DNA of 56,870 bases, taken from IMG/VR virus record IMGVR_UViG_3300037470_000663, positions 1-56,870 of that record; one strand, written 5' to 3'. Shown piece by piece: positions 101-55,740 of this stretch. The position numbers and the translations under genes are program-made. The stretch is from a virus. Lineage: Duplodnaviria; Caudoviricetes. Position 1 is the stretch's first letter; every line of letters begins with the position of its first letter. The notes below the pieces were generated by a model. The model did not search any database, had not been told where the DNA came from, and saw only the letters and a program-made list of their open reading frames with translations.

Positions 101-150
101 ATAGCCCGTCCGCTGACCTCTGGATTTTTCAAGCTAACGGCCGTTTCTTT

Positions 151-1122
151 TCACTCTTCATCACCGCGCGCAAACAATCGCTTGATCGCCCGGTCCTCCA
201 CCCGCCCCGACTCCTCACCAAAATAAAATTCCTGAAGGTCTTGTTGCTGCAAGCGGACATAATTTTCAGACGTCGTTTTGATGTCGCTGTGGCCCAGCAG
301 CTTGCTGACCACGTTGAGCGGCATTCCGTCCTTCAGACGGGTTATGGCGAAAGCGTGGCGGGCAGCGTGGGCGTTGGCTGGTTCGTTTTGGGGGATTTTG
401 GCAGCCTGCTTTAACTTCCAGAAGATCCCGCTGATGTACTCGGTAGAGATTGGCTTGCCGGTCAGTGTGTTCACAAACAGCATGTCATGATCCGGCACCT
501 TCAGGACATGCAGCAGGTTGGCCCGAATTTCCAGCCAGCTGCACAGCAGCAGCCCGGTCGAGTGTAGGCCGTAGTAAATTTGTTCCTTTTTGTGCCTGCG
601 TCCCTTCTCCCAGGCCCGCGCCGCCACGTGCAGTTCGCCATCTTCAGTCAGCCAGCAGTGCGTGGTAGAGATACGCATCGAGTTCAAGCCCCCCACCCTG
701 GCCCCGCCTTCGTAAACCCATTTCACTAAAAGGGCATCGCGCACACCAGTGGCGGCCATGAGCTTGTGATGATTGCTATCGCTCACTCGCTTCACGCCCT
801 TCGTTTCCTCTTCGTAATCAAAGTTGACCGGCGGTACCTGGTGGCCCATCGCCTCTAGACGGGAGAAGACACCGGCCACCCCGCGTTTGTAGTTGTTGCG
901 GGTGGCCGGGCTCAGCGTCACCAGGTCCTCAATTTCATCTTGAAAATGGTCCAGGTGAGCGGCCGTCACCACGTCCAGCCGCATATCGCCAACAATTTCG
1001 GCCAGGCGGTGCATTGAATTTTCGTACCATTTTTTTGTAGACGCGACGACTCGCGGCCGTTTTTTAGAGATACGGCCGCTGGCAATGACGGCGCATTCAG
1101 AGAGGAGTAGAGATTCACGCAT
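151..1122 (-). CDS. int: Tyrosine integrase (XerC/D-like)
   Basis: Catalytic motifs GARVG, HAARH, LLGHSD and ENY; adjacent to attP. Start set at the ATG after GGAG (the ORF track extends it to 1281). Confidence 0.93.
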   Translation of the reverse strand: MRESLLLSECAVIASGRISKKRPRVVASTKKWYENSMHRLAEIVGDMRLDVVTAAHLDHFQDEIEDLVTLSPATRNNYKRGVAGVFSRLEAMGHQVPPVNFDYEEETKGVKRVSDSNHHKLMAATGVRDALLVKWVYEGGARVGGLNSMRISTTHCWLTEDGELHVAARAWEKGRRHKKEQIYYGLHSTGLLLCSWLEIRANLLHVLKVPDHDMLFVNTLTGKPISTEYISGIFWKLKQAAKIPQNEPANAHAARHAFAITRLKDGMPLNVVSKLLGHSDIKTTSENYVRLQQQDLQEFYFGEESGRVEDRAIKRLFARGDEE

Positions 1123-1284
1123 AGGACATCGCTCCATGATCGAGTATTTGGTTAATTGCTCACCTAGTGACTTTCCGGCCGGTGCTTTTGGCCGTAAGGG
1201 ATTGCGCCGTTGGTCTGGCGGCCCGGCGCATCCTGATTTTATCCAACTACCGCCAACGTGCAAACAGCATAGCAGAATCAAAAT

Positions 1285-1602
1285 ATGATCACACTTTCGG
1301 AGCTAAACGGGATGAATTTCGGAGCGATTGCGGTAACGGCCGTTCTCCTCTTCCTTTTCGGCCTGGCCTTCAACCAGCTCATTAACTACCTGCACCGGCG
1401 CGGCCTGAATGATGGCTTTGTCTGGCTGGAGGTGGTGGTGGGTGATGGCGTGGTCATTATCGCCGCTGGCTTCACCCTGGGCTGGGGCGCGGCGCTGCTG
1501 CTGTTTATTTATTTTGCCGCTGCCGGGTTCTGGATGGCGGCCGGGGACATCTGGCGGCACGTCCGGGCGCGGCAGATGGAAGCGCAGGAGCGGGAATTGT
1601 AA
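1285..1602 (+). CDS. Small multi-pass membrane protein
   Basis: About three hydrophobic segments; abuts the next ORF. Confidence 0.7.
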   Translation: MITLSELNGMNFGAIAVTAVLLFLFGLAFNQLINYLHRRGLNDGFVWLEVVVGDGVVIIAAGFTLGWGAALLLFIYFAAAGFWMAAGDIWRHVRARQMEAQEREL

Positions 1603-1827
1603 ATGACCGCACCCCGCGAATGGCCGAACAATCAGCGAATTTACCGTGACCGGGCCGCTGAGGAGACGGCAGCGGCGGAGCGGTACCTACGGAAATTATT
1701 AGCCAGGGTACAGGCGGGGCAGTATACCCGTCATGGCTTGGAGATAGATCTGTTGACATCATGCAATCATTTATTGGCAGCGCTGCGGCATCTGGAAAAA
1801 GCCGGGGCGCAAACGGAACCGGAATGA
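1603..1827 (+). CDS. Hypothetical protein
   Basis: Starts directly after the upstream stop; ATGA overlap with the next ORF. Confidence 0.6.
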   Translation: MTAPREWPNNQRIYRDRAAEETAAAERYLRKLLARVQAGQYTRHGLEIDLLTSCNHLLAALRHLEKAGAQTEPE

Positions 1828-1952
1828 CACCGCTTATGTACTGGATCGCGCTGGCTGTACTGATGGTGCTGGCGGGCGCGCTGGTCGTGGCGGCCTTGGT
1901 GATGTCTGGCCGGATGAGTGCGGCCGAGGAAACGCGCGAGTGTGAGGATTGA
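1824..1952 (+). CDS. Small single-TM peptide (MTPLMYWIALAVL...)
   Basis: ATGA coupling; hydrophobic helix. Confidence 0.5.
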   Translation: MTPLMYWIALAVLMVLAGALVVAALVMSGRMSAAEETRECED

Positions 1953-2069
1953 CCCGCAAGCGTATTTACTACTGCGCCCACCACCCTGCCCGCCGCGCCG
2001 CAATCTGGTATCGCTGGAAACGGCCGTATCGCTGGCTCTGCTGGGAATGTTTTTATCGGAGATATCACT

Positions 2070-2327
2070 ATGACAAGCAACGCAAAACCAGGCACGAGAG
2101 CAGTACCCATTGTACAGAACGGGCAACCCGCCAAATGGACCGAGCATAAGCTATGGGCCGAAATGCGGGCCGTCGGCTGGCAGGCGTTGGGCCAGGGCGT
2201 ATGGACGCATCCTGATTGCCCTGGCTACCAGCTGCAATTGTTTGCTTATGACGCGGCGAACGGCCGTGAGCTGTGGCACCGGTATGCGGAGGAGCGGGCG
2301 GTGCCGAGGGCGGAGGATTTTATTTAG
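2070..2327 (+). CDS. Hypothetical protein
   Basis: GGAG RBS before ATG; normal composition. Confidence 0.6.
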   Translation: MTSNAKPGTRAVPIVQNGQPAKWTEHKLWAEMRAVGWQALGQGVWTHPDCPGYQLQLFAYDAANGRELWHRYAEERAVPRAEDFI

Positions 2328-2336
2328 GTGTTGGGG

Positions 2337-2525
2337 CTATCGCTTTGGCGGGCGGCCTGGGTTGCGTCGGTTTCTCTTGAAGGCTTCCAGGTCCGAGCGG
2401 GTGATGATCCAATCTCGCCCCAGCTTCTGGCCCAAATAACCTTCTTGGCAGTGCTGGCGGAGTGTGGTGACGGCAATACCTAATTCTTTGGCGGCTGTCT
2501 TAATGTCCATAATATCGTTACTCAT
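2337..2525 (-). CDS. Small HTH DNA-binding protein (excisionase/MerR-like HTH_17)
   Basis: AAKELGIAVTTLRQHC...GQKLGRDWIITRSDL winged-HTH pattern; basic GRPPK tail. Confidence 0.8.
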   Translation of the reverse strand: MSNDIMDIKTAAKELGIAVTTLRQHCQEGYLGQKLGRDWIITRSDLEAFKRNRRNPGRPPKR

Positions 2526-2563
2526 GACGTAATTTTAGGGGCTATGATGAATAAAATAAATAG

Positions 2564-2745
2564 TTGCATGCGACGTAAATATATGCTAAGATGTTCTTGT
2601 CGGCTGGCTACCGATGAATTAGGCAATTAGGGTAACGACACAATGAGACACTTGTCCATTAGACTGGCGATTTGTAGAGCAGTTTAGCCACTGTTAAATA
2701 AATCGTTACCCGCCAAATCGCCAGTTTAATGCACAGGTGTTTTTG
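2564..2745 (+). promoter_or_regulatory. Sigma70-like promoter plus structured antisense/attenuator leader of the HNH gene
   Basis: TTGCAT-17-TAAGAT with TGn. TGGCTA (2605) and GGGTAACGA (2630) are complementary to TAGCCA (2685) and TCGTTACCC (2703) inside the long hairpin 2648..2740, which is followed by a T run. Confidence 0.7.
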
Positions 2746-2761
2746 CTTCTCTGGAGACAAC

Positions 2762-3115
2762 ATGGTAGACACGGCGTTTTTGTGCAGGCAGTGCGGTGGG
2801 AAAATTCAGGCAAAGAACGAGATGGCTTACAAGCATCTTCTGAACGGTAACATAACCCTCTGTGATACATGCCGCAGAGGGGGAAACGTCCGTCACTGGA
2901 CGAAGGACGTTTATCAAGAGTATCTCGCTTCCAGCCAGTGGAGAACACGGCGGGAGCGGGCGCTGAAACTGGCGGGGCATCGCTGCCAGGTATGCAGCGG
3001 GAACGGCCGTATGCATGTTCACCACAACACTTACGAGCGGTTGGGCCATGAGCTTGACCGCGATTTGCTGGTAGTGTGCGAGGCTCATCACAGAATGATT
3101 CATAGTATCAAGTGA
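2762..3115 (+). CDS. HNH endonuclease with N-terminal Zn finger
   Basis: CRQC/CDTC, then YLASSQW...CQVC...HVHHNTY...CEAHHRMIH; GGAG RBS. Confidence 0.85.
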   Translation: MVDTAFLCRQCGGKIQAKNEMAYKHLLNGNITLCDTCRRGGNVRHWTKDVYQEYLASSQWRTRRERALKLAGHRCQVCSGNGRMHVHHNTYERLGHELDRDLLVVCEAHHRMIHSIK

Positions 3116-3121
3116 GCACCT

Positions 3122-4033
3122 ATGAAAGTTAGACCTTTTTCGGGGCAAGGCGGGTACACCGTCTTCGACAACATTATCTTAGATTACATTATGCCTGAAT
3201 TGTCGCCTGCGGCGTGGAAGGTTCTTTGCTACATCATTCGCAAAACAATAGGGTGGCACCAGGAGAGTGATAAGTTGAGCTACAGCAGGATCATGGCGGG
3301 GACGGGCATCAAATCACGTCCGACAATCAGTAAGGTTTTGGGCGAGCTTGAGGAGCACGGCTTTGTTGTTGTCACTCGCCCCGAAACGGGTGACTTCGAG
3401 ACCGCCAATAGCTATCAGCTCAACACGTCGCTGGAGCTTGAGATTGATGGGGGTAGTATAAAAAATACACTACCCCCTAGTGCAGAAAATATACCGGGGG
3501 GTAGTTTAGAAAATGAACACAATAAAATAAACCATATAAACAAAATACCCCCCCGCGTGCGCATGATTAACGCACTTGTTGACGCTACAGGCATGAGCGG
3601 AGTTTTGAATTACGCGGTTCTCTCTGAGCTGGCTGATGAGCTAATAGGCGCCAGCTACAGCCATGAGGATGTTGTTGTTGCCTTCTGTAGCCCAAACGGA
3701 TATTGGCGCAAGGCCGATTGGCGCGGGCAGCGTGGCGACTTTCCAGACCCGAAACACATCCGTGAATGTATTCGCCGTGGCCTGGAGTGGGAGAGACGGA
3801 AGTCGGCACCGTCACCGGAAACAAAATTGGACCGAGGTGACACGGCCGTATGGGGAACCGCCCTCACCCACGCCCGCCGGGGCGATTCCAACTTCGCAGA
3901 CCCGGCTCTAAAAGCGGCCGTACGTGTCTTTGGGTGGCCCAAACTCCAGGCCATAAAACCAGGGGATGAAAACTTTTACCGTAAGGAATTTTTAAGGATA
4001 TACAATGACCAACTCGAACCAGCTTCCACCTAA
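3122..4033 (+). CDS. Phage replication initiator (lambda O-like, N-terminal wHTH)
   Basis: LSPAAWKVLCYIIRKTIGW...LSYSRI..GTGIKSR.TISKVL.ELE motif; contains iterons; overlaps DnaB. Confidence 0.85.
   Translation: MKVRPFSGQGGYTVFDNIILDYIMPELSPAAWKVLCYIIRKTIGWHQESDKLSYSRIMAGTGIKSRPTISKVLGELEEHGFVVVTRPETGDFETANSYQLNTSLELEIDGGSIKNTLPPSAENIPGGSLENEHNKINHINKIPPRVRMINALVDATGMSGVLNYAVLSELADELIGASYSHEDVVVAFCSPNGYWRKADWRGQRGDFPDPKHIRECIRRGLEWERRKSAPSPETKLDRGDTAVWGTALTHARRGDSNFADPALKAAVRVFGWPKLQAIKPGDENFYRKEFLRIYNDQLEPAST
3449..3547. other. Putative replication origin (three iterons plus AT-rich tract)
   Basis: TAGTnnARAAAATnnAC at 3454, 3478 and 3502 (24-bp period), followed by AATAAAATAAACCATATAAACAAAATA inside the initiator gene. 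Confidence 0.7.
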
Positions 4034-5342
4034 CAGCGTCGAATCCGAGCAGGCCGTCATTGGCTCGCTGCTCATTGACCCCGACGCGCTGCATATGATT
4101 AGTGATTTCCTGAAGCCAGAAGATTTTTACATTGGCAAAAACGGCCTGGTTTACCGGGTGATTCAGGACATGAGTGCCGAGGGGCTGCGGCCCGATGTTG
4201 TTTCCCTGGCTGCGCGGTTGGCGGCCGAAACGAAACGGCCGGAGCTTGACGAATCCGGCGATCTGGTGAACCTGATCAACACCGTTCCTACGGCCATCAG
4301 CATTAGGGAATATGCCCGCACGGTGGAAGCGGCCAGCATCCGCCGGAAGATGATCCAGGTGGGCGGCAAAATCGCCACGCTGGGCTATGACGAAAAAGAG
4401 GATTTGGGCGCGCAGCTAGACCAGGCCGAAACGATGATTTTCGAGGTGCGAGGCGAACGCAATAAAGACGGCGTAAGAAAGCCGCGCCAATACACCGGGG
4501 ATTACCTGGACTGGTTTACGAACGCTGCTCACGAGCCAAAGGCCACGGGATTACCTACTGGCCTAAAAGACCTCGACCATCTGTTAGGGGGCCTAGAAGC
4601 GCCCTGGCAGTACGTTTTAGCGGCACGTCCGGGCATGGGTAAATCCGCACTGGCTGGTAATGTGGCTTTGAATCTGGCATTGAGCCACGGCAAACGGGTT
4701 CTGTTTTTCGCGCTAGAGATGAGCAAGCGCCAGATTATGAATCGGCTGTGCGCTAACCTGGCGCGAATTAACAGCCGAAAAATAAAAACGCCGTGGCTGC
4801 TATCTGAAAGCGAGCAGATGGTGATCCATCAATCTATCGGCAGCATCTCCGACAGTCGCCTGTTTATTGACGACACGGAAAACATTTCACCGGCAGAGAT
4901 ACGCGCCAAAACCATGCGCGTGTACGCCGAGCACGGCGTTGACCTGGTAATTGTGGACCATCTTCACATCATGCGACCAGACCGGCGGCTGAACCGACCG
5001 GACCAGGAATACGGCGAGATGACAAAGGCACTGGCGGGGTTGGGCAAGCAAATCAACGCGCCGATCCTGACGCTGGCTCAGCTCAATCGCTCGGTGGAAT
5101 CACGCCAGAACAAACGGCCGCAAATGAGCGACCTGCGCGAATCGGGCGCGATTGAAGAAAACGCTTACGCGGTGATGTTCCTTTACCGTGATGCCTACTA
5201 TGACGAGATGTGCGACCAGCCCAACACGGCCGAGCTTATTGTGGCAAAACACCGCGATGGCGATACGGGCACGGTTAAATTATTCTGGGCTCCGCAGACA
5301 GCTAAGTTTTCAAATCTGTCTACGGTCCCAATGGAGTTATAG
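4005..5342 (+). CDS. dnaB: Replicative DNA helicase DnaB
   Basis: PPNSVESEQAVIGSLL N-terminus, Walker A AARPGMGKS, IVDHL, QLNR, DLRESGAIE, AKHRDG. Confidence 0.97.
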   Translation: MTNSNQLPPNSVESEQAVIGSLLIDPDALHMISDFLKPEDFYIGKNGLVYRVIQDMSAEGLRPDVVSLAARLAAETKRPELDESGDLVNLINTVPTAISIREYARTVEAASIRRKMIQVGGKIATLGYDEKEDLGAQLDQAETMIFEVRGERNKDGVRKPRQYTGDYLDWFTNAAHEPKATGLPTGLKDLDHLLGGLEAPWQYVLAARPGMGKSALAGNVALNLALSHGKRVLFFALEMSKRQIMNRLCANLARINSRKIKTPWLLSESEQMVIHQSIGSISDSRLFIDDTENISPAEIRAKTMRVYAEHGVDLVIVDHLHIMRPDRRLNRPDQEYGEMTKALAGLGKQINAPILTLAQLNRSVESRQNKRPQMSDLRESGAIEENAYAVMFLYRDAYYDEMCDQPNTAELIVAKHRDGDTGTVKLFWAPQTAKFSNLSTVPMEL

Positions 5343-5488
5343 CGAATGGCAACGGAATTGAGCCGCTACATCGGCAAGCGGGTAGCCGACCGGCTGCTGC
5401 AAATGGCCCCGGCTGTGCCGGGTACGGGTGACAGCTTTATTGTCGATATGTTTGGTGTGCCGTCCTACCGACGGCGGCAAGGGGGGCG

Positions 5489-5863
5489 GTGATGACCGAC
5501 TGGCTAACCTCCCGCGAAACGGCCGTTCTCCTCGGCATCTCATCACGAAGAAACCTGAGCCAGGTCACCGGCTTTGAGACCATCAAACGCAAGCCGGGCG
5601 CACCGTACAACGGCTACTACTACCGGCGGGCCGATGTGGAGCGCGTGGCCCAGTACCGCAGCAGCGGCCAGGCGTGGCAGGACAGCTACGCCAATCGGCA
5701 GAAGCGCACCCGCAAGCCATCGAAGGCCCAGCAGGTGAAGCGCGGCGGGCGCACGGTTGACCCGCTGACCTACCTCCGCAACCGTGCCAAGATTCGGCAG
5801 CAGGAAACGGCCGTGCGGCGTGGGGAGTTGGAGCCGGTTTATTTGCCGGGAAAACATTCGTAA
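5489..5863 (+). CDS. HTH DNA-binding protein
   Basis: WLTSRETAVLLGIS...YYRRADVE pattern of MerR/Xis-type HTH; basic C-terminus. Confidence 0.65.
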   Translation: MMTDWLTSRETAVLLGISSRRNLSQVTGFETIKRKPGAPYNGYYYRRADVERVAQYRSSGQAWQDSYANRQKRTRKPSKAQQVKRGGRTVDPLTYLRNRAKIRQQETAVRRGELEPVYLPGKHS

Positions 5864-5890
5864 TCAAAGCAAAATAAAAAAGGAGCAATT

Positions 5891-6298
5891 GTGATGACTG
5901 AGCAAAATAACAATTTGGAAATGTGGGCAGTAGTAGAACTGATGGGGCACGGCCGTACCGCCGGGATTATTCGCACCTCAGATCTGGGCGGGCTGATTCG
6001 GGTTGATGTTCCCGTTGATGACGGCTACCGCACAGAATATTTTGGTGAAGCGGCGATTTATGCGATTAAGGTGGTAAGTGAGGAAATCGCCCGCGCTTAC
6101 GCTTTGCCGGATCGTGACATCCTGGCCTATGATGAGCCAATTGTACCGCGTGCCGACTACGAGAAGGCTTTGCAGATTGCCCGCAATAATGCTCATGATA
6201 TGCAACGGCAAATTGATACCCTTCAACGGCGGTTGACGGCCGTTTCCGCGTTGCCTGAATGGGCGGAGAATACAGACAGCGCAGAGAATGATTTTTAG
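5891..6298 (+). CDS. Conserved phage hypothetical protein (WAVVELMGH type)
   Basis: Strong AAAGGAG RBS; beta-rich N-terminus, coiled-coil C-terminus. Confidence 0.7.
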   Translation: MMTEQNNNLEMWAVVELMGHGRTAGIIRTSDLGGLIRVDVPVDDGYRTEYFGEAAIYAIKVVSEEIARAYALPDRDILAYDEPIVPRADYEKALQIARNNAHDMQRQIDTLQRRLTAVSALPEWAENTDSAENDF

Positions 6299-8349: not shown

Positions 8350-8372
8350 GCGATTCTGACGCATATGACACA

Positions 8373-37779: not shown

Positions 37780-38356
37780 CCTCGCCACATCCAACGATGC
37801 GGACGTCTAACTTGACACCATCGCCAGAATCGGCGATACTTACCGGCGCCCATCGTCACAAACAACGATGAGATCCCATCGTCACAAATGACGAGCATCG
37901 AGCATCGTCAAAACCGGCGATAGGATCCGGAAAAGGAAACAATCATGATAGAACTCGGCAGATACAACGGCGGAAAAGGCAACGTATTCCGGCAGATCAT
38001 CAATGAGATGCCGCCCCACAAAACGTATGTTGAAGCGTTTGTTGGTGGCGGCTCCGTGGCCCTCAACAAACTTCCGGCTCAACGCAACATCCTGATAGAC
38101 AAAGACCCGGAAGTGATCGAGACTTGGCTGAGCCACCTCGCCACAAATGACGCTGCTGCAGCAACGTCACAAATGACGATGCGATATCCCCTCGTCACAA
38201 ACGGCGATAACCTCGACGACCTCGCCAATTTCAACGATGCTGCACCATCATCAAATCTAACGATGCCAGCTGTCACCGCCATTCCCAGCGATAGCACCCG
38301 GGCAACTATCGTCAAAAATGACGATGCCTCCGGGCACATCGTCACCTTCGACGATG
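37780..38356. repeat. Array of 13 imperfect 20-bp palindromes (consensus CMTCGYCA-N4-YRRCGATR)
   Basis: Starts at 37780, 37819, 37851, 37877, 37903 (upstream of gene) and 38136, 38162, 38190, 38220, 38246, 38274, 38307, 38337 (inside gene). Confidence 0.93.
37812..37840 (+). promoter_or_regulatory. Sigma70 promoter of the methyltransferase, overlapped by repeat 2
   Basis: TTGACA (37812)-17-GATACT (37835). Confidence 0.7.
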
Positions 38357-38850
38357 ACACCAGGTACGAACTTTACTGCGCCGATGCCCTGCAACTCCTG
38401 CCCCATTTGGGCCTGGGTCACGATGCCCTGGTCTATGCCGACCCGCCTTACCTTCTCAGCACCCGAACTGAGAAACGGCCGTTGTATCGCTACGAAATGG
38501 GCGAAGAGTGGGAACATGAGATGATGATAGGTGCTTTTGACAAGCTGCCCTGCAAGATTATGATTTCCGGCTACTGGTCCGGCCTCTACGCTGGTTTGAT
38601 GAAAGACGGTTGGCGCAATTTTGATTACACCGCCTACGACCGGCAGAACCGGCCCCGGCAAGAATACGTTTGGTGCAACTTCCCCGAACCTTCCCGCCTG
38701 CATGATTACACATTCATTGGTGACAACTTCCGCGAACGCGAACGGATAAAAAGAAAAGCGGCCCGTTGGGTGGGCCGCTTTGAAAATCTGCCAGCATTAG
38801 AACGCCGGGCGATCCTTGAGCAGCTAGACGCTGCTGGGGTGCTAGATTAG
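37945..38850 (+). CDS. Dam/D12-class N6-adenine DNA methyltransferase with repeat-encoded insertion
   Basis: YNGGKG, YVEAFVGGGSV (motif I), YADPPY (motif IV), MISGY, QEYVWCNF; opposite strand to its neighbours. Confidence 0.9.
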   Translation: MIELGRYNGGKGNVFRQIINEMPPHKTYVEAFVGGGSVALNKLPAQRNILIDKDPEVIETWLSHLATNDAAAATSQMTMRYPLVTNGDNLDDLANFNDAAPSSNLTMPAVTAIPSDSTRATIVKNDDASGHIVTFDDDTRYELYCADALQLLPHLGLGHDALVYADPPYLLSTRTEKRPLYRYEMGEEWEHEMMIGAFDKLPCKIMISGYWSGLYAGLMKDGWRNFDYTAYDRQNRPRQEYVWCNFPEPSRLHDYTFIGDNFRERERIKRKAARWVGRFENLPALERRAILEQLDAAGVLD

Positions 38851-44109: not shown

Positions 44110-45504
44110 TTATCCTCTGGGCTGCCAGCCCTTTGTCTTGCCCTGGGCAAATGTGCCCACCTTGCGGGTTTCGGTCAGTTCGCCAAATCCGCCGCTACAA
44201 CAATCGCGCACATCCCACAGGCCATCCGGTGTATTGTGCATGATAGATAAAAAACGATCATTCCAATCGGCACGCAGCAGCCAGACGTTGCGCGCCTTCA
44301 CCTGCGAGGCAAACGGCCGGAAACGGTCCAGCTTGTCTCCCGTCGGCCGCACCCCGGCGCAGTTCAGCCCGGCCATCTTCTTGGCCAGCGATGCCGAGGT
44401 GCGCTTGCCGCTGCTACCGCCCTCCTCCTCCCAGCGCTGTTTGATTGCACGGCCGTCCTGTCGAGCAATAGATACGGCGTGGTCATCCACCTGTGCCGGG
44501 CCGATCCAATCTTCAGTCATGTCAATTATACCGTACCCACCGCTGGCATCCTTGCATATCTTGACTGAAGCCGTGGCCGCGCCGAGCCTGACCTTTTTCT
44601 CGCTGGCGGCAAAGTCCCAGAAGCGTACGACCTCAGTGATTTGCGGTAGCTGGTCAATGACATAAAACCAGCTGCGGTCGATGACGTTGCCCGCTTGCGG
44701 CCGTATCTTATGGTTGCCGCGCAGCAGCCGCTCCTGCTCTACCAGGTTCAGGCCGTGCAGCTTGGCCAGGTAGGTGGGATCGGTTTGCAGGAGGATTTGA
44801 TTATCCTCCACAAATGAGGGGATGAAGGTAAAAGAGAGTGGGGGGATGCCGGGCCAGGCGGCCAGGGCCTCTTCTTTACTGTCGTACCAGTGCAGTTTGT
44901 CGCGCACGTTGACGAACCAGCGGATAATGCCCGCTTTCGTCAGGTCAGGGTACTCGCCATTTTCATCCAGATACCAGTCGACAAATTCATGCAGCCAGCC
45001 GCCAACGGGATCGTCAGACGGCACGGGGTTGTAGCTGAGGCGGATGTAGGGTGCGATGCCGCAGGTGGAGCGCGAACGGCTGAACATGTAAAAAATCTGT
45101 GACCGGGTAAACGTTTCACCCTGGTCGTAGAGCTGCAAGGGGATCTGCGCGCCCAGCCAGTTTTCTTTGCTCTTTTCGTGCTGCATGTGGGAGAAGCTGA
45201 TGGTATTGCCGTATGGCGGGAACTTGAAGTCCAGGTTAGGCGACTGCCGGTTTTTGGCTCCGAGTGGCGTGTACAGCGAAACGGCCGTATCCCATGGCCC
45301 GCCCTCTGTGGTGATTTGGGGCGATTCGCGCCGGAAAAACACCGCGCCGAAACCTTTGGTGGTCATGATATGGCGCAGCGGCTCCATGAGCAGGGCGTAG
45401 GTTTTACCGCCGCCAGCTGCGCCGCCGAAAAACACGACGTCGGCCGATGAGGAATGGAACGCCTCCTGCGGGCCGAGCTGCGGGCAGATGTCGGTGCGTA
45501 TCAT
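44110..45504 (-). CDS. terL: Terminase large subunit
   Basis: Walker A GGAAGGGKT, SRSRS, NP, RFWDFA nuclease motif, EEEGGSSGK, DVRD. Confidence 0.93.
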   Translation of the reverse strand: MIRTDICPQLGPQEAFHSSSADVVFFGGAAGGGKTYALLMEPLRHIMTTKGFGAVFFRRESPQITTEGGPWDTAVSLYTPLGAKNRQSPNLDFKFPPYGNTISFSHMQHEKSKENWLGAQIPLQLYDQGETFTRSQIFYMFSRSRSTCGIAPYIRLSYNPVPSDDPVGGWLHEFVDWYLDENGEYPDLTKAGIIRWFVNVRDKLHWYDSKEEALAAWPGIPPLSFTFIPSFVEDNQILLQTDPTYLAKLHGLNLVEQERLLRGNHKIRPQAGNVIDRSWFYVIDQLPQITEVVRFWDFAASEKKVRLGAATASVKICKDASGGYGIIDMTEDWIGPAQVDDHAVSIARQDGRAIKQRWEEEGGSSGKRTSASLAKKMAGLNCAGVRPTGDKLDRFRPFASQVKARNVWLLRADWNDRFLSIMHNTPDGLWDVRDCCSGGFGELTETRKVGTFAQGKTKGWQPRG

Positions 45505-47546: not shown

Positions 47547-48452
47547 TTACCGTGAGCCATCATGCCCCCTTTCGGCCGATGTCGCCGGGTCTGATTCGCC
47601 GGTCAGTTCCTTCAACCACCCCACGGCCGTTTCCACCGCCGCCGCGTCGTCATCCACACCCACGGCCGTGCGGCCCAACTGCACCGCCTCCACCAGCGTC
47701 GTACCCGCGCCGCAAAAGGGATCGACTACTGCATCACCCGGCCTCGTATGCTGCTGGACAAAGCGCCGGGGCAGCAGCCGGGGGAAACTGCCGCCTTCGA
47801 CACGCGGCCGTCCCTGGTCGCCGCTGCTGCTGAAGCGCAGCACGTTGCCCTGGCGCGCGCCGTCTGGGTGCAGCCGGGCATGGCCGTTGGTGTGCTTGCC
47901 CAGCAAGTCGGCCTGGCGCGGGTTACCGTTTTTGTTTTTGGCGATGGTTTTGGGGGAGTACGGCCGTCTGGCTGGCCGGTAAAAATAGTGATGGCTGCGG
48001 GCAAACACGGCCGCAATTTCCCATTCATCCCGGTCGTGGCGCTTGTGGTTTCCGGCCGGTGGTGCGTTGAGCTTGTCCCAAATGTAAAAATCGACCGGCA
48101 GCAGGCCGTGCCGTTCGCCGATTTCGTGAATGAGCAGCAGCTGATCCACGTCAAACCAACCGTCTGCGGTACGGCCGTATTTGTAAACCAGCACAATGAC
48201 ACCGGTTTCGGGATCGATTTTAGGCACCCAGGCTGCCAGGCGCTTATGCAGCCAGACGTGGTAAGCCGCGCCGCTGAGCTCAAAGCCGTGCAGGCCGGGG
48301 TACGGTGGCGAGGTGAGGAGGAGCTGGAAGATGCCATCGCCATAATAGCCAGCGACGGACAAACAATCATCATGCCAGACGGCGTATTTTTCGTCGTGGT
48401 GTAACTTTCGATCGAGAGGCGGCTGCGTTAGCTGCGGTTGGGGCACGGTCAC
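47547..48452 (-). CDS. Beta-class N4-cytosine/N6-adenine DNA methyltransferase
   Basis: LTSPPY before VVDPFCGAGTT; GTG start coupled to the upstream stop. Confidence 0.88.
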   Translation of the reverse strand: MTVPQPQLTQPPLDRKLHHDEKYAVWHDDCLSVAGYYGDGIFQLLLTSPPYPGLHGFELSGAAYHVWLHKRLAAWVPKIDPETGVIVLVYKYGRTADGWFDVDQLLLIHEIGERHGLLPVDFYIWDKLNAPPAGNHKRHDRDEWEIAAVFARSHHYFYRPARRPYSPKTIAKNKNGNPRQADLLGKHTNGHARLHPDGARQGNVLRFSSSGDQGRPRVEGGSFPRLLPRRFVQQHTRPGDAVVDPFCGAGTTLVEAVQLGRTAVGVDDDAAAVETAVGWLKELTGESDPATSAERGHDGSR

Positions 48453-49461: not shown

Positions 49462-49478
49462 AAACCACCTCAAATATA

Positions 49479-49608: not shown

Positions 49609-49736
49609 TACACTTGTGGCAAGTAGCGTCACAATACCAGAGGTAGTTAACGCGAAAAGACCCGTTTTGGGGGCGGGTCTTTTCTAGTCGCGTTTCTCTC
49701 GTGCCAGTTGGGGGGAGGTAAGAGCTGAATTGTACC

Positions 49737-50081
49737 TTAGCTTTCGCCCGGCTCCAAATCCAGATCGGCCGGGTCGCAGATGAACCCAACCCAACACGCG
49801 CCAACCACCGACTGAATCTCGGCCTCGTCCAGGCCCAGGTAGCTTGCCACGTCGAAGAGCAGGAACGCCTCGATACGGCCGTACTGCCCGTCCAGCTCCA
49901 GTTCGGCACGCAGGGCGCGCAGCTGGTCCACGGCCTCCTCGCGGCTGAGCCAGGCGGAGACCGCGGCCGGTTCTGGGTGTTCGGCGGTCGCTGTTTCGGT
50001 ACGGCCGTGTAGCCGATAACCAAAGAGAACGAGCAGGACGGCCGTTGTTAGGGCAAAGAAGATGGGGATTATCGGGTTCAT
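49737..50081 (-). CDS. Membrane-anchored hypothetical protein
   Basis: N-terminal TM; GGAGGAG RBS. Confidence 0.65.
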   Translation of the reverse strand: MNPIIPIFFALTTAVLLVLFGYRLHGRTETATAEHPEPAAVSAWLSREEAVDQLRALRAELELDGQYGRIEAFLLFDVASYLGLDEAEIQSVVGACWVGFICDPADLDLEPGES

Positions 50082-50329
50082 ACGGTCTCCTCCTCCACCT
50101 GGACATTAACGCTGGCCATCCAGCTCCAACCGCTGCCGATGGGTCGCTGGCTGGTCTGCACGGCCGGGTCATCGTCGTTTAATTTCATGATGTCGGCGGC
50201 GCGCTGGGCGCTGATGGGCTTGGCGTCGATGACGATACGGCCGTTTTCCCGCCGGTTGTAGAAGTGCAGGGTGCCATCATAGGCGATGTGCAGATGGATG
50301 GTTACGGTGTGGTAAAATGGTTCTGTCAT
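50078..50329 (-). CDS. Hypothetical protein
   Basis: AAGGA RBS. Confidence 0.65.
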   Translation of the reverse strand: MTEPFYHTVTIHLHIAYDGTLHFYNRRENGRIVIDAKPISAQRAADIMKLNDDDPAVQTSQRPIGSGWSWMASVNVQVEEETV

Positions 50330-50396
50330 GGGTTTATCCTTGTGATACGGCCGTTTCCTGTCTTTGACGAGGTGGGGAAACGGCCGTTTTTGTTAC

Positions 50397-50879
50397 TTAG
50401 CCGAAAATAACGGTTAGGTTTTCTTTATCAGAATGAACCTGCAAGAAATTGATAAATCCGATTACGTCACGGATGCGGCCACGAAATGCCTGAAATTCCT
50501 TGTAGGGTTCATCCTCAAGCGCCCGACCGATTTCTTTACTTTGAGCAAGCCAGGGAATAAGCGTTTGATCACGAAAAGACAATACATTTTCAAGCGTGCC
50601 GTTTTCCATCATCAATTCTTCTCCATTGGAGCCTTCCCAATCAGGAAAGAAATCGTACGGATTTGGCGCGCCAAGTTTTTCTGCCATTTCGGTAACGGCG
50701 CGAAGACTGCCCCATGATTCGCGGAGGTAACCACTTTCGGGAACACTCTCGAATCCAGTAATGGAATTTTCGTAGTAATTGTTCCACTGCCCGCCCTCTT
50801 CTTGCCACCCGATAAAATACTTGTAGCCATCTTCGTTTTTTTTAACGGTTCCCCATCTGCAATAAATATCGAGTCCCAT
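50397..50879 (-). CDS. Hypothetical protein (MGLD-start type), cassette gene
   Basis: AT-richer; bounded by junction repeats. Confidence 0.7.
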   Translation of the reverse strand: MGLDIYCRWGTVKKNEDGYKYFIGWQEEGGQWNNYYENSITGFESVPESGYLRESWGSLRAVTEMAEKLGAPNPYDFFPDWEGSNGEELMMENGTLENVLSFRDQTLIPWLAQSKEIGRALEDEPYKEFQAFRGRIRDVIGFINFLQVHSDKENLTVIFG

Positions 50880-50905
50880 TTTGTTGCCTTTTCCTTCGCC
50901 GTCCA

Positions 50906-50936
50906 CTGCGGCCTGGTGGCCGGGTTACGGCCGTTT
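50906..50936. repeat. Junction repeat A, 31 bp (identical copy 51776..51806)
   Basis: CTGCGGCCTGGTGGCCGGGTTACGGCCGTTT. Confidence 0.92.
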
Positions 50937-50941
50937 TTGTT

Positions 50942-51367
50942 CTACAATAGCCAATTAACTTTGTTGCCAATCAAATCGCTGCCGTCGAGCTCCCTGCCTT
51001 CAAAGCCCCTCGGGGTGTAATGCCCCTTAGCAAATGTGACCCCCTTCCGATAATCCTTCGTCATCCCCTTTGTTTCCAGGTGATAGCGCGGCCAGTGACC
51101 ATCACTGTCGATGTGTGTCACGACATAGATGAGGCTGTAGTAGTCCCCATCCCAATCGTTGACGCTGTGCAAGCCCGTTGGCTTTTTGATGACCCAATCT
51201 GAATCACCATCAAACCAACCGAAACGGCCGTAATTATCAGGGTCAACCACAACCAATTGACCAACGGACACAATTGGTTCATCAACTCCGGCTTGTTCGC
51301 AGTCAATCGCAGCCTGTTCGCCGTCGAAAATCCGACCGCAAATTGAACACTCGTATTTAATTCGCAT
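50942..51367 (-). CDS. Hypothetical protein with N-terminal Zn-finger-like motif, cassette gene
   Basis: YECSICG...A..CE; AAAGGA RBS. Confidence 0.7.
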   Translation of the reverse strand: MRIKYECSICGRIFDGEQAAIDCEQAGVDEPIVSVGQLVVVDPDNYGRFGWFDGDSDWVIKKPTGLHSVNDWDGDYYSLIYVVTHIDSDGHWPRYHLETKGMTKDYRKGVTFAKGHYTPRGFEGRELDGSDLIGNKVNWLL

Positions 51368-51379
51368 ATGATTGTTCGT

Positions 51380-51403
51380 TTCCTTTGGCCAAACGGCCGT
51401 TTT
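51380..51403. repeat. Junction repeat B, 24 bp (copy 52008..52031, one mismatch)
   Basis: TTCCTTTGGCCAWACGGCCGTTTT. Confidence 0.9.
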
Positions 51404-51404
51404 G

Positions 51405-51755
51405 TTACGCGCCTAAGACGCGCTCCAGGTGAGCGAAGCGGCCGGCTGTCTTTTTATCAAATTCTTCAATCTCTGAATAGTCCACGTCCGGGTCGTTGTG
51501 GTCCAGTCCTCTGTGGAGGACGTTCCAGCGCTCCATCAGTTCATCGAATTCGTTTGCGGCTTCGTAATATTCCCGTATGGATAGCGGCTCATCGTCATAA
51601 TAAGCACTGTAATGGTTTCGGTAACCAGCGTATTGTTCGTCGAAACTTTCCAATAGCTGATCACGCTGGTTTTCCAAGTCGGCGATAGCGCTGTCCAGTC
51701 GTGACAACTTTGCCCCAAACTCGACTACAACCTTTTCCTGTTCTGGCTTAAGCAT
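51405..51755 (-). CDS. Acidic coiled-coil hypothetical protein, cassette gene
   Basis: AAAGGAG RBS. Confidence 0.7.
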   Translation of the reverse strand: MLKPEQEKVVVEFGAKLSRLDSAIADLENQRDQLLESFDEQYAGYRNHYSAYYDDEPLSIREYYEAANEFDELMERWNVLHRGLDHNDPDVDYSEIEEFDKKTAGRFAHLERVLGA

Positions 51756-51810
51756 GATTGCTCCTTTGCCGCCTGCTGCGGCCTGGTGGCCGGGTTACGG
51801 CCGTTTATCC

Positions 51811-52002
51811 TTAGTATTTGAAGTCTTTCTGCTTTTCCAGTTTTTCGATCCTCTCTTCCAGCTTGCGGATTCTTTCCGTGAGCACATCCTCAATGGCTTC
51901 GACGGCGGATTCGATTTCTACCTGGTTATCGCTGTCCCAATTCCACCCACCCCCGGATGCACTTCTGAAATAATGGACAAAAATTCTTTTTGCGTAATTC
52001 AT
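51811..52002 (-). CDS. Hypothetical protein, cassette gene
   Basis: AAAGGAA RBS before ATG 52002. Confidence 0.65.
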   Translation of the reverse strand: MNYAKRIFVHYFRSASGGGWNWDSDNQVEIESAVEAIEDVLTERIRKLEERIEKLEKQKDFKY

Positions 52003-52067
52003 TTCAGTTCCTTTGGCCATACGGCCGTTTTTGCTGGGAGCGCTGCTCATTTACGAGCCACTCACTA

Positions 52068-52268
52068 TTAAAAAATCTCCGCCGCCTGCGCCATACTGCT
52101 GCGGATTTCATCGTAGGTAAATCCGACGCGCCTGCCGTCGGGGAATTGTAGCTCCAGGCCCACGGCACGGCCGTTTTTCAGGTAGTAGCCGGTTTTGGTG
52201 GCCTCGACGGGTACGTGGTCCTCTGGATGCATGACCCAGACTGTTTTATTGGATTGTTCGTTGATCAT
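52068..52268 (-). CDS. Hypothetical protein
   Basis: ATGA coupling. Confidence 0.6.
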   Translation of the reverse strand: MINEQSNKTVWVMHPEDHVPVEATKTGYYLKNGRAVGLELQFPDGRRVGFTYDEIRSSMAQAAEIF

Positions 52269-52456
52269 GTCGGTTTCTTTCCCTGGAACAATTTCTGAGC
52301 AGCCAGGTCAATTTCAGCCTGGCGCTTGAACCATTCGATTTGCTCCTCTTTTGTCAGGGGCAGCTTCGGTTCCGGATCGGCTGGCGGTTTCTTGTCTTGT
52401 TGAGCTATGGTTTGCATTAGGTCTCCTTTCAGCGTGATCTCGTATGCGCTGCCCAC
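52265..52456 (-). CDS. Hypothetical protein
   Basis: AAAGGAG RBS. Confidence 0.55.
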   Translation of the reverse strand: MGSAYEITLKGDLMQTIAQQDKKPPADPEPKLPLTKEEQIEWFKRQAEIDLAAQKLFQGKKPT

Positions 52457-52501
52457 GGTTGCTCCTTTCCCGGCGCGGCTGTTTGCGCGCGAACCAATAA
52501 G

Positions 52502-52828
52502 CTAATCAATATGCCAGCCTGGGCTGTTCTTGCTGGCGTAGCCCCGGCAATAATGGGTATCGCCGCGTTCATCAACGACGCCGTGGCTGTGCCAACTGTC
52601 GCCCTGCTTTTCGCGCTTACGCATCACCTCATTGTGTTTGGGGCAGATGGGATCACCCTCGGGCGTGTACTTGAAGTCGCGGGCGGCCTCGGCCGTGGGT
52701 GCTGGGGAGTAGCCCCAACCCGACAGCTTGACCAGCGCTTCATCCAGGCGGCCGGGCTCGGGCGTGATTTCAAAGTCAACCGGCCAGCCGTTTGGGCTAA
52801 TGGTGTGGATCGTAATTTTGTCGAACAT
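52502..52828 (-). CDS. Small Zn-binding protein (CPKH...H...YC)
   Basis: GGAGG RBS; P.CP.H...M..R...W.SH...YC.G motif. Confidence 0.7.
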   Translation of the reverse strand: MFDKITIHTISPNGWPVDFEITPEPGRLDEALVKLSGWGYSPAPTAEAARDFKYTPEGDPICPKHNEVMRKREKQGDSWHSHGVVDERGDTHYCRGYASKNSPGWHID

Positions 52829-52898
52829 TGCTACCTCCAGTTTGTAAGTGCTCTTAAAACGATTGCAAAAAACAGAATAACAAAAAATATCTCAAGCA

Positions 52899-53606
52899 TT
52901 AGTCACCCCCTGCCCCAGCTGCGGCCGGTTGACCGTTGGCCCGCTGCCAGATGTCGGGGCGGATGGTGGCTGCACCGTTGGCCATTGCCATGCGGGCGTA
53001 GCGCCGGGCACCTTCGGCCGTGTGGTACTGGGCGCGCCGGGCAGCCTCGAATTTGTTCTCGCCGCGCCGGGCGACGCGCAGCTGCATGGCATCGCGGTTG
53101 GCTTGCCGCCGGGCTTCAACGGCCGCTTCTTTCTCGGCCTCGGTGGTGGGTAGGATGGTCTGAGCCAATGCGCGGGCCATACGGACGGCTAGGTAGTGGC
53201 TGCATGGCGTTTCGTTGAACTGCGACCATTTGCACGTACATTTGCCGTTGACTTCGTAGGTGTCGCTGCTGCCCTGCACTACGGCCGTATCCTCGCCGGT
53301 GAGCCGCACGCGGCCAGCTTCGACCAGGCGGGCGGCTTTTTCGTAGCGGTTAGCCCAGCTGGGCTGTTTGGCGGTGCCCAGGGCGGCCAGGGCGTAAGCG
53401 CGGTGTGTGTCCGGCTGCGCCTGCTGCATTTGCTCGGCCGTCAGGCGTGGGGCGCGGATGTTGAGGTTGGCGGCGTCGAGCCGGCCGTCTTCGTGGTGCA
53501 GGGCCGCAACGGTGTGGCCGATGTCTGGGTGCTGGTCGTCGGCGTCGTACCATTTGGCGTAGTAGGTGCCGTTTTCTAGTTTGGTGAGTGATTGTAGGGT
53601 GATCAT
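52899..53606 (-). CDS. SWIM zinc-finger protein
   Basis: CTCKW...PCSH.LAV. Confidence 0.8.
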   Translation of the reverse strand: MITLQSLTKLENGTYYAKWYDADDQHPDIGHTVAALHHEDGRLDAANLNIRAPRLTAEQMQQAQPDTHRAYALAALGTAKQPSWANRYEKAARLVEAGRVRLTGEDTAVVQGSSDTYEVNGKCTCKWSQFNETPCSHYLAVRMARALAQTILPTTEAEKEAAVEARRQANRDAMQLRVARRGENKFEAARRAQYHTAEGARRYARMAMANGAATIRPDIWQRANGQPAAAGAGGD

Positions 53607-53851
53607 TGGGCCACCTCGTCGATGTGATTGACCAGCGCCGCGCCGCGCAGCTGGTTGAGGGCCACGGTATAGGCGATAGCAAATGAGGGCGCTGTGGCGC
53701 TTACGGGATTGCCGTAAGCGGGCCGCAGGGTGACGGTGGTCATGATGGTGCCACGGCCGTCTGCCGCCATGTCGATGACCGGGCTAAAGGGCAGCTGCCG
53801 CAGCAGGATGCTTAAGTGGGTGATGGGGTCGTGGGCGATGGGGTTGGTCAT
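53603..53851 (-). CDS. Hypothetical protein
   Basis: Coupled on both sides. Confidence 0.6.
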   Translation of the reverse strand: MTNPIAHDPITHLSILLRQLPFSPVIDMAADGRGTIMTTVTLRPAYGNPVSATAPSFAIAYTVALNQLRGAALVNHIDEVAQ

Positions 53852-54090
53852 TATTGCACCGCCTGGGGGAGCAAGGAGCCGGAACGGCCGTTGACGTGGA
53901 AGAGGTCCAGGCTTTTCAGGTAACGATCCACCAGGTAGCTGTACATATCGTCTGATGGGTCGAGGCTGATGAGTTCGGCCAGGGCGCGGTTTAAGCGCTG
54001 CATCTGGGTTACCGGGCAGAATGATTTCTGCTTGTGTCGTTTGATTTCGGAGAGGCTGTGCTTTTTGATTTCTGTCTGCTGTGTTATCAT
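53851..54090 (-). CDS. Hypothetical protein
   Basis: AAAGGA RBS before ATG 54090; the longer ORF in the track overlaps the next gene. Confidence 0.5.
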   Translation of the reverse strand: MITQQTEIKKHSLSEIKRHKQKSFCPVTQMQRLNRALAELISLDPSDDMYSYLVDRYLKSLDLFHVNGRSGSLLPQAVQ

Positions 54091-54158
54091 CACTGTGTCC
54101 TTTGTTGGATATTGGGGCCGCCTTCTTCTTTCTGGGAGTGGGGCGGTCCCTTTTTTAT

Positions 54159-54359
54159 TTAACTCCAAATAATTGACTGCATGACATCTTTCATACCCTG
54201 CATAAAGTGGGGCGACCCTGCGGCGTCCCATTCTTGGGTAGCGACTTGCAGGAATTTTTCCTTGCCCATTGCGTTGATAATGGCCTCTGCCTCGCTGCCA
54301 ATTCTGCCAGTGGCTAAAAGCCATGCTAAGGTTTGTTCTGCTACGCTTAAAGATGTCAT
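54159..54359 (-). CDS. First gene of the leftward operon (Cro position), hypothetical
   Basis: Directly downstream of the leftward promoter; no clear HTH. Confidence 0.55.
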   Translation of the reverse strand: MTSLSVAEQTLAWLLATGRIGSEAEAIINAMGKEKFLQVATQEWDAAGSPHFMQGMKDVMQSIIWS

Positions 54360-54403
54360 TGTCTCTTTTCCTTGCCCGGTGGGGCGGCTTTTTGTATATA
54401 GGA

Positions 54404-54478
54404 ATTGTAAACGATTCTTTACGATTTGTCAACACCTAAAATTTACTCATTGACAAAACGGCAATGAGCGTTTACACT
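54404..54478. promoter_or_regulatory. Back-to-back promoters of the lysis/lysogeny switch
   Basis: - strand TTGACA-17-TACAAT (54432..54404); + strand TTGACA-17-TACACT (54450..54478); both contain CGTTTACA. Confidence 0.8.
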
Positions 54479-54515
54479 GGGTGGAAATTTTTACCAATGA
54501 GGAGGTGAGACGCAA

Positions 54516-54818
54516 GTGGCAGCTTTTCGGACAAACTTTTGGAAACTCTTGAGCGAGAAGGAACAAAGTGAAAGCGAACGATACACCAATATCACAGCCC
54601 TGGCTGACAAAATTGGCACCACCCGCCCCACACTGTATAAGTACGCAGACGAACCCATGACCAGCGTTGACGCGGGTGTAATTTATTCTTTCCTGAAATT
54701 CTTTGACTTGGGGGTAGATGAGATCGGTAAGTTTCTAGTAATAGACCTCTCCCCACAACCAGACGCTCAAGAGATTCGCGTAAGTGGGGCGGCTGAAACG
54801 GCCGTTCCTGCTACGTAA
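54516..54818 (+). CDS. XRE/Cro-C1 HTH repressor
   Basis: ITALADKIGTTRPTLYKY HTH; GAGGAGG RBS; divergent arrangement. Confidence 0.82.
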   Translation: MAAFRTNFWKLLSEKEQSESERYTNITALADKIGTTRPTLYKYADEPMTSVDAGVIYSFLKFFDLGVDEIGKFLVIDLSPQPDAQEIRVSGAAETAVPAT

Positions 54819-54821
54819 AAC

Positions 54822-54858
54822 AAAAGGTCCGAGCCGCTTGCGACTCGAACCCTTTTTT
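54822..54858. terminator. Probable bidirectional terminator
   Basis: A run, imperfect stem, T run, between convergent genes. Confidence 0.55.
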
Positions 54859-54950
54859 GTGTCCCTACCCCGTTCTAGTTTGGCGACCGGACAGGGTAGG
54901 GTTAATTACAGCACCTTTACAATTTTACACTTTCAAGGCACAGGATTAAC

Positions 54951-55418
54951 TTAGTTGCCTACATCGACGCTCCAGTTGTTAAACCGGCTCGCGTTCAGCG
55001 TCGCAGCATCCAGCGCTTCGCCAGCGGCCGTAGCATCGCCATCGTCCAGCGCTCGCATTGCATCACGAAAGTGCCGGGCGGCAAACGCCAGCGTCTCTTG
55101 CTTCAGCGGGTAGGCATCCCGGCACTCAAACCGGTTGATCTTGACCAGCAGGGCAGTAACGGCCGTGTCTGCGGCCGACCTGCTGGAGGCGCTTCTGATG
55201 TCGGTCTCGTCGATAATATCGTTTAGCTCGTTCATTAACGGAGTGGCCTGACTGCGGTAAGTCTGCAAGGTGCAGCTCTCGGAGCCGGTGTCGGTGGCAG
55301 TAGAGCCGCCACCAAGCAGCGAAGGCAGCGCGGCCAGCAGTCCGGCAAAGGCCAGGGCGGCGATAATCAGCCATAGGCCCCAGTTCCTCTTTACGGGTTT
55401 CTCCGGTTCAGCAGTCAT
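54951..55418 (-). CDS. Membrane-anchored helical protein (possible superinfection exclusion)
   Basis: N-terminal TM; AGGAGG RBS; immunity-region position. Function is a guess. Confidence 0.6.
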   Translation of the reverse strand: MTAEPEKPVKRNWGLWLIIAALAFAGLLAALPSLLGGGSTATDTGSESCTLQTYRSQATPLMNELNDIIDETDIRSASSRSAADTAVTALLVKINRFECRDAYPLKQETLAFAARHFRDAMRALDDGDATAAGEALDAATLNASRFNNWSVDVGN

Positions 55419-55740
55419 AAATCCTCCTGTGTCTAATAACATCAGCATCTACGGCCGTCGATAACCAAACGCGTACGGCCGTTTTGCAAACTGGCGGCGG
55501 GTTTTTATTAACCCAACACTTCACCAACAAACTGTGTTTTCCCCGCCGCCTTTTTCTTTGGTTCCTACGGCCGTCTTCCCCGGCTGTGTGAATACCCCTC
55601 TCTTCCAGCCAGCGGCCGTTTGTCCTCTCCGAGAAACGGCCGTTGGCAAACTTTATTCGTGACTTCAGGAGAAGCAATGCATCAAAAAGAGATCGTCATA
55701 ATAAAAAATGGTTTGGTAGACGACAGCGCCAGGCGTTCCA

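Follow-up and report, generated by a model that had tools for sequence, protein, structure and literature searches.

A highly iterated palindrome of a Chloroflexota lineage in the genome of a resident prophage

The virus record IMGVR_UViG_3300037470_000663 of IMG/VR (Duplodnaviria; Caudoviricetes) consists of a single stretch of 56,870 bases, called here the window, in which an 8-letter palindrome, ACGGCCGT, recurs about once every 420 bases. This locus raises the question of why a phage genome should be filled with one short word, and whether the cause lies in the phage or in the cells where it resides. The DNA represents an integrated temperate phage, inserted in the tRNA-Met gene of an uncultured Chloroflexota host. 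ACGGCCGT shows all the sequence-level features that define the class of highly iterated palindromes (HIP), although it is not the cyanobacterial HIP1 itself, whose word (GCGATCGC) is different. Taking all the evidence together, we favour, with some reserve, the reading that ACGGCCGT is the HIP of the host lineage and that it is imposed on the prophage by a process encoded by the host.

The word in the prophage and the pressure on DNA

137..55643, no strand: ACGGCCGT field, from word counts (135 full copies, 99 7-mers with one flank and 77 bare CGGCCG)

The window contains 135 exact copies of ACGGCCGT, distributed from 137-144 to 55636-55643, whereas 100 dinucleotide-preserving shuffles contain 1.52 on average and four at most. 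This density (2,374 per Mb, or 2.39 per kb of prophage) is about 90 times the expectation. No other 8-mer of the window is as frequent as ACGGCCGT, and the runner-up among palindromic 8-mers is present nine times. The initial annotation of this DNA had pointed to a strong excess and listed 19 copies between positions 1 and 10000; the excess is real, and all the 19 positions carry the word, with no others in that stretch. The core of the word, CGGCCG, appears 311 times, the full copies being those with both flanks (A before and T after).

All the modules of the prophage are rich in ACGGCCGT, with 2.0 copies per kb in positions 1-13950, 2.4 in 13951-46160 (lysis, structural and terminase genes) and 2.9 in 46161-56403, so that the density of the structural genes is indeed as high or higher than that of the first region, as had been stated. 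Most copies (123 of 135) are wholly within called open reading frames (ORFs), and the remaining 12 touch the 3,526 bases outside them, which makes the non-ORF density at least equal. The frequent location beside stop codons that had been noticed is a weak effect: 11 copies lie 15 nt or less from the 3' end of a gene, against 5.8 expected (P ~0.03). The spacing of the copies is slightly more even than random (coefficient of variation 0.85 versus 0.99±0.08, P 0.03), and this evenness is inconsistent across 20 stretches of host DNA.

With respect to its surroundings, ACGGCCGT had been described as often extended. This holds in part only: AAACGGCCGT is present 29 times, ACGGCCGTTT 34 times and the full 12-mer nine times, for 135 copies of the word. 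There is a weak palindromic consensus, GGAA-ACGGCCGT-TTCC, and letters more than four positions away from the word are near background. One-letter variants are concentrated at the outer positions (99 versus 12.3 expected), those at inner positions being 16 versus 19.8 expected. Repetitive extragenic palindromic (REP) elements, miniature inverted-repeat transposable elements (MITE) and other inserted repeats were ruled out as the source of the copies from their location inside ORFs and the near-background composition of their distal flanks.

The excess could simply follow from base composition, codon usage or amino-acid content. In favour of this possibility, synonymous shuffling within the 58 confidently called genes leaves 13.7±3.2 copies, above the 1.9 copies left by shuffling of codon order. 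However, these genes contain 94 copies and the maximum in 300 synonymous shuffles was 24. Correction for codons and amino acids had been proposed as the test able to refute the enrichment, and the enrichment persists after it. Since the excess outlasts synonymous-codon shuffling, the pressure for ACGGCCGT acts on DNA, as had been claimed, and it overrides protein sequence. The word is read in all frames, in agreement with the recurrent peptides first noticed: Thr-Ala-Val (TAV) in 49 cases, [Tyr/Asn/Asp/His]-Gly-Arg in 37 (YGR 17, NGR 9, DGR 9, HGR 2) and x-Arg-Pro-x in eight, including two KRP. In a stricter set of 47 phage genes, TAV is present 43 times versus 6.2 expected, always encoded by ACGGCCGT, and sevenfold above its five permutations, which appear 5-11 times each. 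The same is seen in a host sample of 392 kb from five word-rich genomes (1.72 copies of ACGGCCGT per kb), in which 310 of the 326 TAV (48.6 expected) are encoded by the word. The high density of non-ORF DNA also argues against a compositional origin, which is refuted by the shuffling and the TAV counts and retains practically no probability.

The terminase gene allows the origin of individual copies to be followed.

44110..45504, minus strand: large terminase, with two copies of the word (45281 and 44449)

Both copies have arisen by substitution, with no insertions or deletions in the alignment with relatives. One of the sites reads TAV in the window and in its closest relative, L001, and EAE, ESM or TAA in other relatives; the other reads Asp-Gly-Arg and is kept in the window and in the relatives L001-L003. 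The word spreads by base substitution into all the frames, modules and spacers of the prophage.

Host lineage, related phages and a second word

1..94, plus strand: left attachment (att) copy, a 94-bp exact direct repeat identical to 56310-56403
56310..56403, plus strand: right att copy, overlapping the 5' 30 nt of tRNA-Met (56265-56339, minus strand)
56404..56870, no strand: host flank of 467 bases, including tRNA-Pro (56498-56572), with no copies of ACGGCCGT
151..1281, minus strand: tyrosine integrase (PF00589, E 3e-21)

The exact repeat at tRNA-Met and a flank that matches host chromosomes identify the window as an integrated prophage with little host DNA. The best match of the flank is with chromosomes of a word-rich Chloroflexota clade, at 73-84% identity, and in the best matches the similarity begins where the repeat ends. 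Several host genomes share with the window a Gly-Met-Pro cluster of tRNA genes.

Clusters of three ACGGCCGT within about 100 bases were sought in 185,579 species genomes, giving at least 120 stretches. Among those listed, 39 reach both 4 kb in length and 1.5 copies per kb, and all of them are labelled Chloroflexota (Ardenticatenaceae, Promineifilaceae, Candidatus (Ca.) Leptovillus, Ca. Leptofilum, Anaerolineae or 'Chloroflexia'), and stretches of at least 4 kb under other labels reach 1.12 per kb at most. Each of five host genomes examined contains 8,294-14,879 copies (1.5-2.1 per kb) in chromosomes of 5-8 Mb, versus 50-202 copies of the reversed word. The survey across Chloroflexota that the initial annotation had suggested places the dense word in one order, whose records carry the first four of the labels above. 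Within this order, 50 of 121 genomes have at least one copy per kb (1.11-2.18, median 1.54), 15 have 0.2-1 and 56, including the unpublished genome G279, have less than 0.2. In an evenly drawn sample of the class, three of 251 genomes exceed one copy per kb.

Host and phage share more than the word itself. The preference for G G A A before ACGGCCGT is equal in the host sample and in the phage, and so is the hierarchy of sites, from the full 8-mer to the one-flank 7-mer and to the bare CGGCCG, the latter being at about chance level in hosts. Outer-letter variants are also in excess in hosts (369 versus 117 expected), and inner ones are at or below expectation. Sites of the reference host genome G001 are kept in other host species in 15 of 16, 19 of 22 and 20 of 27 cases, versus 37%, 24% and 22% of control 8-mers; that is, at 78-85% nucleotide identity, 74-94% of the sites are conserved versus 22-37% of controls. 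The earlier description of ACGGCCGT as a HIP-like motif of the host lineage is thus sustained by its clade-wide presence, its common flanks and the match of the host flank to the clade. The same cannot be said of the notion that the phage has adopted it, since the phage may simply undergo the same process as its host.

The density of ACGGCCGT drops with distance among the phage relatives gathered by a terminase search:

L001: 86% terminase identity, 2.65 copies per kb
L002: 65% terminase identity, 0.86 copies per kb
L003: 64% terminase identity, 0.57 copies per kb
L005: 58% terminase identity, 1.85 copies per kb
All 19 other relatives: 47% terminase identity or less, 0-1 copies in total each

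The alignment with L001 covers 2.4 kb, in which three of five sites are kept versus 17-19% of controls, these being few sites. Other viral records are also dense in the word:

G411: 100,373 bases, 226 copies, terminal repeats and integrase
G412: 65,512 bases, 227 copies, provirus class
G413: 46,238 bases, 106 copies
G414: 57,020 bases, 89 copies

These four records are probably not close kin of the window, judging from their absence among the matches of the terminase search, their proteins being uncompared. A search of 7 kb of the window by blastn against GenBank phages gave no match.

These distributions bear on the possibility that the word serves the phage itself, for instance as the target of one of its two methyltransferases or as a packaging or nuclease site. 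The phage does encode two methyltransferases and HNH and GIY-YIG nucleases, and it has bare CGGCCG in excess over the host sample. However, host chromosomes are full of this word, flanked in the same manner, it is dense in the probably unrelated G411-G414, and it is practically missing from the terminase relatives at 47% identity or less. A function proper to the phage is therefore close to refuted, and we regard it as highly improbable. The suggestion that recombination joints between related phages fall on ACGGCCGT found no support, in a weak test. The copy nearest to the left att repeat, at 137, is 43 bases away from it, and some 670 bases separate the right repeat from its nearest copy, at 55636; the six ends of the stretches common to the window and L001, judged by eye, are 11-240 bases from the nearest ACGGCCGT.

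Another palindrome, TGCCGGCA, first used as a control word, is present at 0.9-1.8 copies per kb in four sister genomes of the same order in which ACGGCCGT is nearly absent (loci L169-L191):

G263: 4,690 copies of TGCCGGCA and 21 of ACGGCCGT
G265: 8,850 copies of TGCCGGCA and 64 of ACGGCCGT
G282: 6,775 copies of TGCCGGCA and 110 of ACGGCCGT
G319: 4,560 copies of TGCCGGCA and 132 of ACGGCCGT

In 74.6 kb of these genomes TGCCGGCA is found 72 times (2.6 expected) and CGGCCG nine times (30.9 expected); CGGCCG is about threefold and GGCC twofold depleted. Reciprocally, GCCGGC, the core of TGCCGGCA, is present 87 times in the ACGGCCGT hosts versus 257 expected. In the phage there are 20 GCCGGC sites, from 6843 to 53485, versus 46.1±7.5 expected, and among L001-L006 five have 0-2 versus 3-11 expected, L005 being too short to judge (0 versus 1.1). 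What is new here is the existence of four sister genomes with TGCCGGCA, the reciprocal depletion of cores, and a phage that shares with its hosts both the enrichment in ACGGCCGT and the avoidance of GCCGGC. This avoidance fits a restriction activity against GCCGGC in the lineage; the NgoMIV and NaeI nuclease families had no match in five genomes, control genomes being silent too. No clear TGCCGGCA-rich phages were found among 27 stretches. A weak version of the second word is seen in G325, with 924 copies of TGCCGGCA.

The abundance of the word in the phage had been taken as the opposite of the usual avoidance of palindromes by phages. This interpretation has to be qualified. Phage and host both avoid most other 6-base palindromes (for instance, GGCGCC, CCCGGG and CTGCAG), and CGATCG is among those most avoided by the phage (three versus 13.5 expected). 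CGGCCG is therefore an exception in a phage that does avoid palindromes.

A proposed process behind the word

From the results above we infer a host-encoded process of conversion or maintenance, acting at the DNA level. Such a sequence-specific process would create the word, and then keep it, in any DNA that is replicated and repaired for long in these cells. The prophage would be exposed to it through integration and through copying, presumably by host enzymes, because it brings an initiator and a helicase only:

3122..5342, plus strand: RepO-like replication initiator and DnaB helicase (family matches)

DNA polymerase families had no match in the 40 ORFs scanned, which include all but one of those of at least 250 codons. 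PMC4390886 reports that one-letter variants of HIP1 are concentrated at the outer letters, from which Elhai proposed a ratchet of biased repair beside a methylated core. By analogy, the likeliest process for ACGGCCGT would be a ratchet of this type, with biased mismatch correction beside a marked CGGCCG core; as the specific step, this is a tentative proposal.

Methyltransferases are the obvious candidates for the marking enzyme, and a link of ACGGCCGT to them had been suspected. No type examined follows ACGGCCGT across genomes. The phage has two of these enzymes, neither orthologous to a host enzyme:

47547..48410, minus strand: beta-class amino-methyltransferase with the motif SPPY (family match)
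37945..38850, plus strand: second methyltransferase of the phage, D12 (Dam-like) class (class match)

SPPY is the motif usual in N4-cytosine methyltransferases. The identity between the D12 enzyme and the host Dam-like enzyme is about 32% over two short stretches. In the hosts, members of PF01555 differ between genomes, with the exception of one orphan of 664 amino acids located beside housekeeping genes. This orphan is detected in 106 of the 121 genomes of the order at E 0.001, with 100 strong matches (50-89% identity where listed). A SPPY type of about 460 amino acids is present in the four TGCCGGCA genomes and in nine others. None of the three amino-methyltransferase types (664-amino-acid orphan, SPPY and Dam-like) is associated with the word among the genomes of the order, and NCBIfam and PDB gave no specificity for the methyltransferases examined. 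The orphan of G001 (L192:8467-10461) has an unusual layout, with a motif for binding S-adenosylmethionine near the N-terminus and the catalytic region after residue 470. The Dam-like gene of G001 is followed by a 168-codon ORF, possibly a nuclease (L261:2287-2793), and GATC is at about 0.6 of expectation in host and phage alike.

Several results weigh against a host process of this kind. No marking enzyme was found: the C5-methyltransferase family PF00145 is present in one of five ACGGCCGT-rich genomes (and in two of five TGCCGGCA-rich ones), the orphan amino-methyltransferase is present in 44 of 50 rich, 12 of 15 intermediate and 44 of 56 poor genomes, and the Dam-like enzyme in 99 of 121, word-poor genomes included. 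Inner transition variants are undepleted in hosts (observed/expected 0.94-1.44), so that there is no trace of repair of the very-short-patch type. The phage exceeds the host sample per kb by 1.4 times in full sites, three times in one-flank sites and five times in bare cores, and these last two excesses would not be expected if phage DNA had simply equilibrated with that of the host; the densities of one-flank and bare sites vary from one host to another, and the phage's own host species is not among the genomes compared. That species is outside the genome collection, as indicated by the best flank identity, and a terminase search of the 121 genomes at E 1e-20 found no related prophage. Finally, the strong conservation of sites between host species fits selection as well as repair bias.

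Selection is the basis of a different explanation, in which the word is a functional site read by the cells (for DNA uptake, as a recombination signal or as a mark of self) and is kept in phages because they gain by resembling host DNA. The conservation of sites, three to four times better than that of control 8-mers between host species, speaks for it, and so does the terminase site kept in four phages at 63-80% nucleotide identity. The phage density of 2.39 per kb also tops that of all 121 hosts (maximum 2.18), and two mutually exclusive words coexist in one order, each lineage depleting the core of the other. HIP1 itself is now proposed as an uptake signal (PMC13756078). Nevertheless, sites that recur every 420 bases and prevail over protein sequence would be hard to maintain one by one, and no reader protein was identified. 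In Neisseria it is the core genes that are richer in uptake sequences, with phage and island DNA poorer, and the opposite is observed here. A functional site is a rather unlikely explanation, and a process encoded by the host is preferred.

A bolder proposal, which we consider doubtful, is that iterated palindromes are lineage 'dialects' of a self-mark. Within one order of Chloroflexota, sister lineages would write ACGGCCGT or TGCCGGCA, at a density near two per kb, and would eliminate the core of the other word, and resident phages would have to copy both the enrichment and the avoidance. A host system would both write and read the mark without needing a C5 methyltransferase, and lineages, together with their phages, would become isolated from one another when the dialect changes.

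Among known systems, HIP1 is the closest. As described in PMC4390886, PMC5861425 and PMC13756078, HIP1 is, like ACGGCCGT, a GC-rich 8-letter palindrome found about once per 0.4-1 kb in genes and spacers and spread by substitution, with outer-letter variants, weak palindromic extensions, conservation above background and restriction to a lineage. The density of ACGGCCGT is that of the class, both in the phage and in the 50 rich host genomes (1,110-2,180 per Mb). The two words differ in that ACGGCCGT has the core CGGCCG with A/T flanks, whereas HIP1 has CGATCG with G/C flanks; in that ACGGCCGT belongs to another phylum (Chloroflexota instead of cyanobacteria); in that its hosts lack a C5 methyltransferase in four of five genomes, with no methyltransferase co-distributed; and in that ACGGCCGT is shown inside a prophage. 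The alternate HIP of Oscillatoria PCC 10802 (rCCGGy/GCCGGC), described in Elhai 2015, offers a parallel to TGCCGGCA, since a lineage without the main word has another palindrome at similar density, and the core of TGCCGGCA is also GCCGGC. However, the Chloroflexota lineages are also about threefold depleted in the core of the other, and the methyltransferase match reported there by Elhai for alternate cyanobacterial HIPs was not found for the Chloroflexota words.

Other comparisons are more distant. The DNA uptake sequences of Neisseria and Pasteurellaceae are short words, present about once per kb, that constrain protein sequence, are not palindromic and have a known receptor. ACGGCCGT resembles them as a short and frequent word that constrains proteins, but it is palindromic and its density in the phage is at or above that in the host. 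In Escherichia coli, very-short-patch repair raises the counts of CCWGG, a methylated word, through repair bias. The likeness lies in this bias, although the effect is far smaller there than for ACGGCCGT; here the C5 methyltransferase is missing in four of five hosts and the inner transitions are undepleted, the Vsr family being outside the searches made.

A literature search in which supplementary tables were not covered found no description of ACGGCCGT, of HIP in Chloroflexota, or of HIP in phages or prophages, and the HIP papers compared mention neither 'phage' nor 'Chloroflex'. According to PMC13756078, HIP1 has remained unexplained for three decades and has been studied in cyanobacteria only. 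ACGGCCGT provides a second and independent system for asking how such words spread. One order contains a graded series of genomes (rich, intermediate and poor) together with four genomes that have another word, so that comparative genomics can seek genes that switch with the word. Phage genomes can act as reporters: small and quick to evolve, they can reveal the process in action through visible intermediates and through amino-acid replacements in conserved enzymes. The negative result on C5 methyltransferases concerns the link that underlies the current cyanobacterial model. In addition, the word combined with the avoidance of GCCGGC is a strong signal for predicting the hosts of uncultured phages that infect these wastewater filament formers.

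Other features of the prophage and of distant phages

Besides the genes already listed, the prophage encodes a small terminase, a capsid protein, an amidase-bearing tail or lysis protein, and the nucleases mentioned above. The ORF of the SPPY methyltransferase extends over 47547-48800 with a TTG start, but its first 130 codons or so look non-coding and the enzyme probably begins near 48410. The D12-class gene lies on the opposite strand within the structural block, resembling an inserted extra gene. A tRNA-Gly and the 3' part of tRNA-Met (56192-56339) are located to the phage side of the right att repeat, which suggests that the phage supplies replacements for the tRNA genes it displaces.

Two distant terminase relatives of lower GC content, L014 and L017, contain TATCGATA eight times (0.14 expected) and four times (0.19 expected), respectively; these counts may point to a further iterated palindrome, belonging to a different group of hosts. 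In the viral contigs L243 and L256 (39-40% GC), GCCGGC is present 28 and 20 times, versus 0.9 and 0.8 expected.

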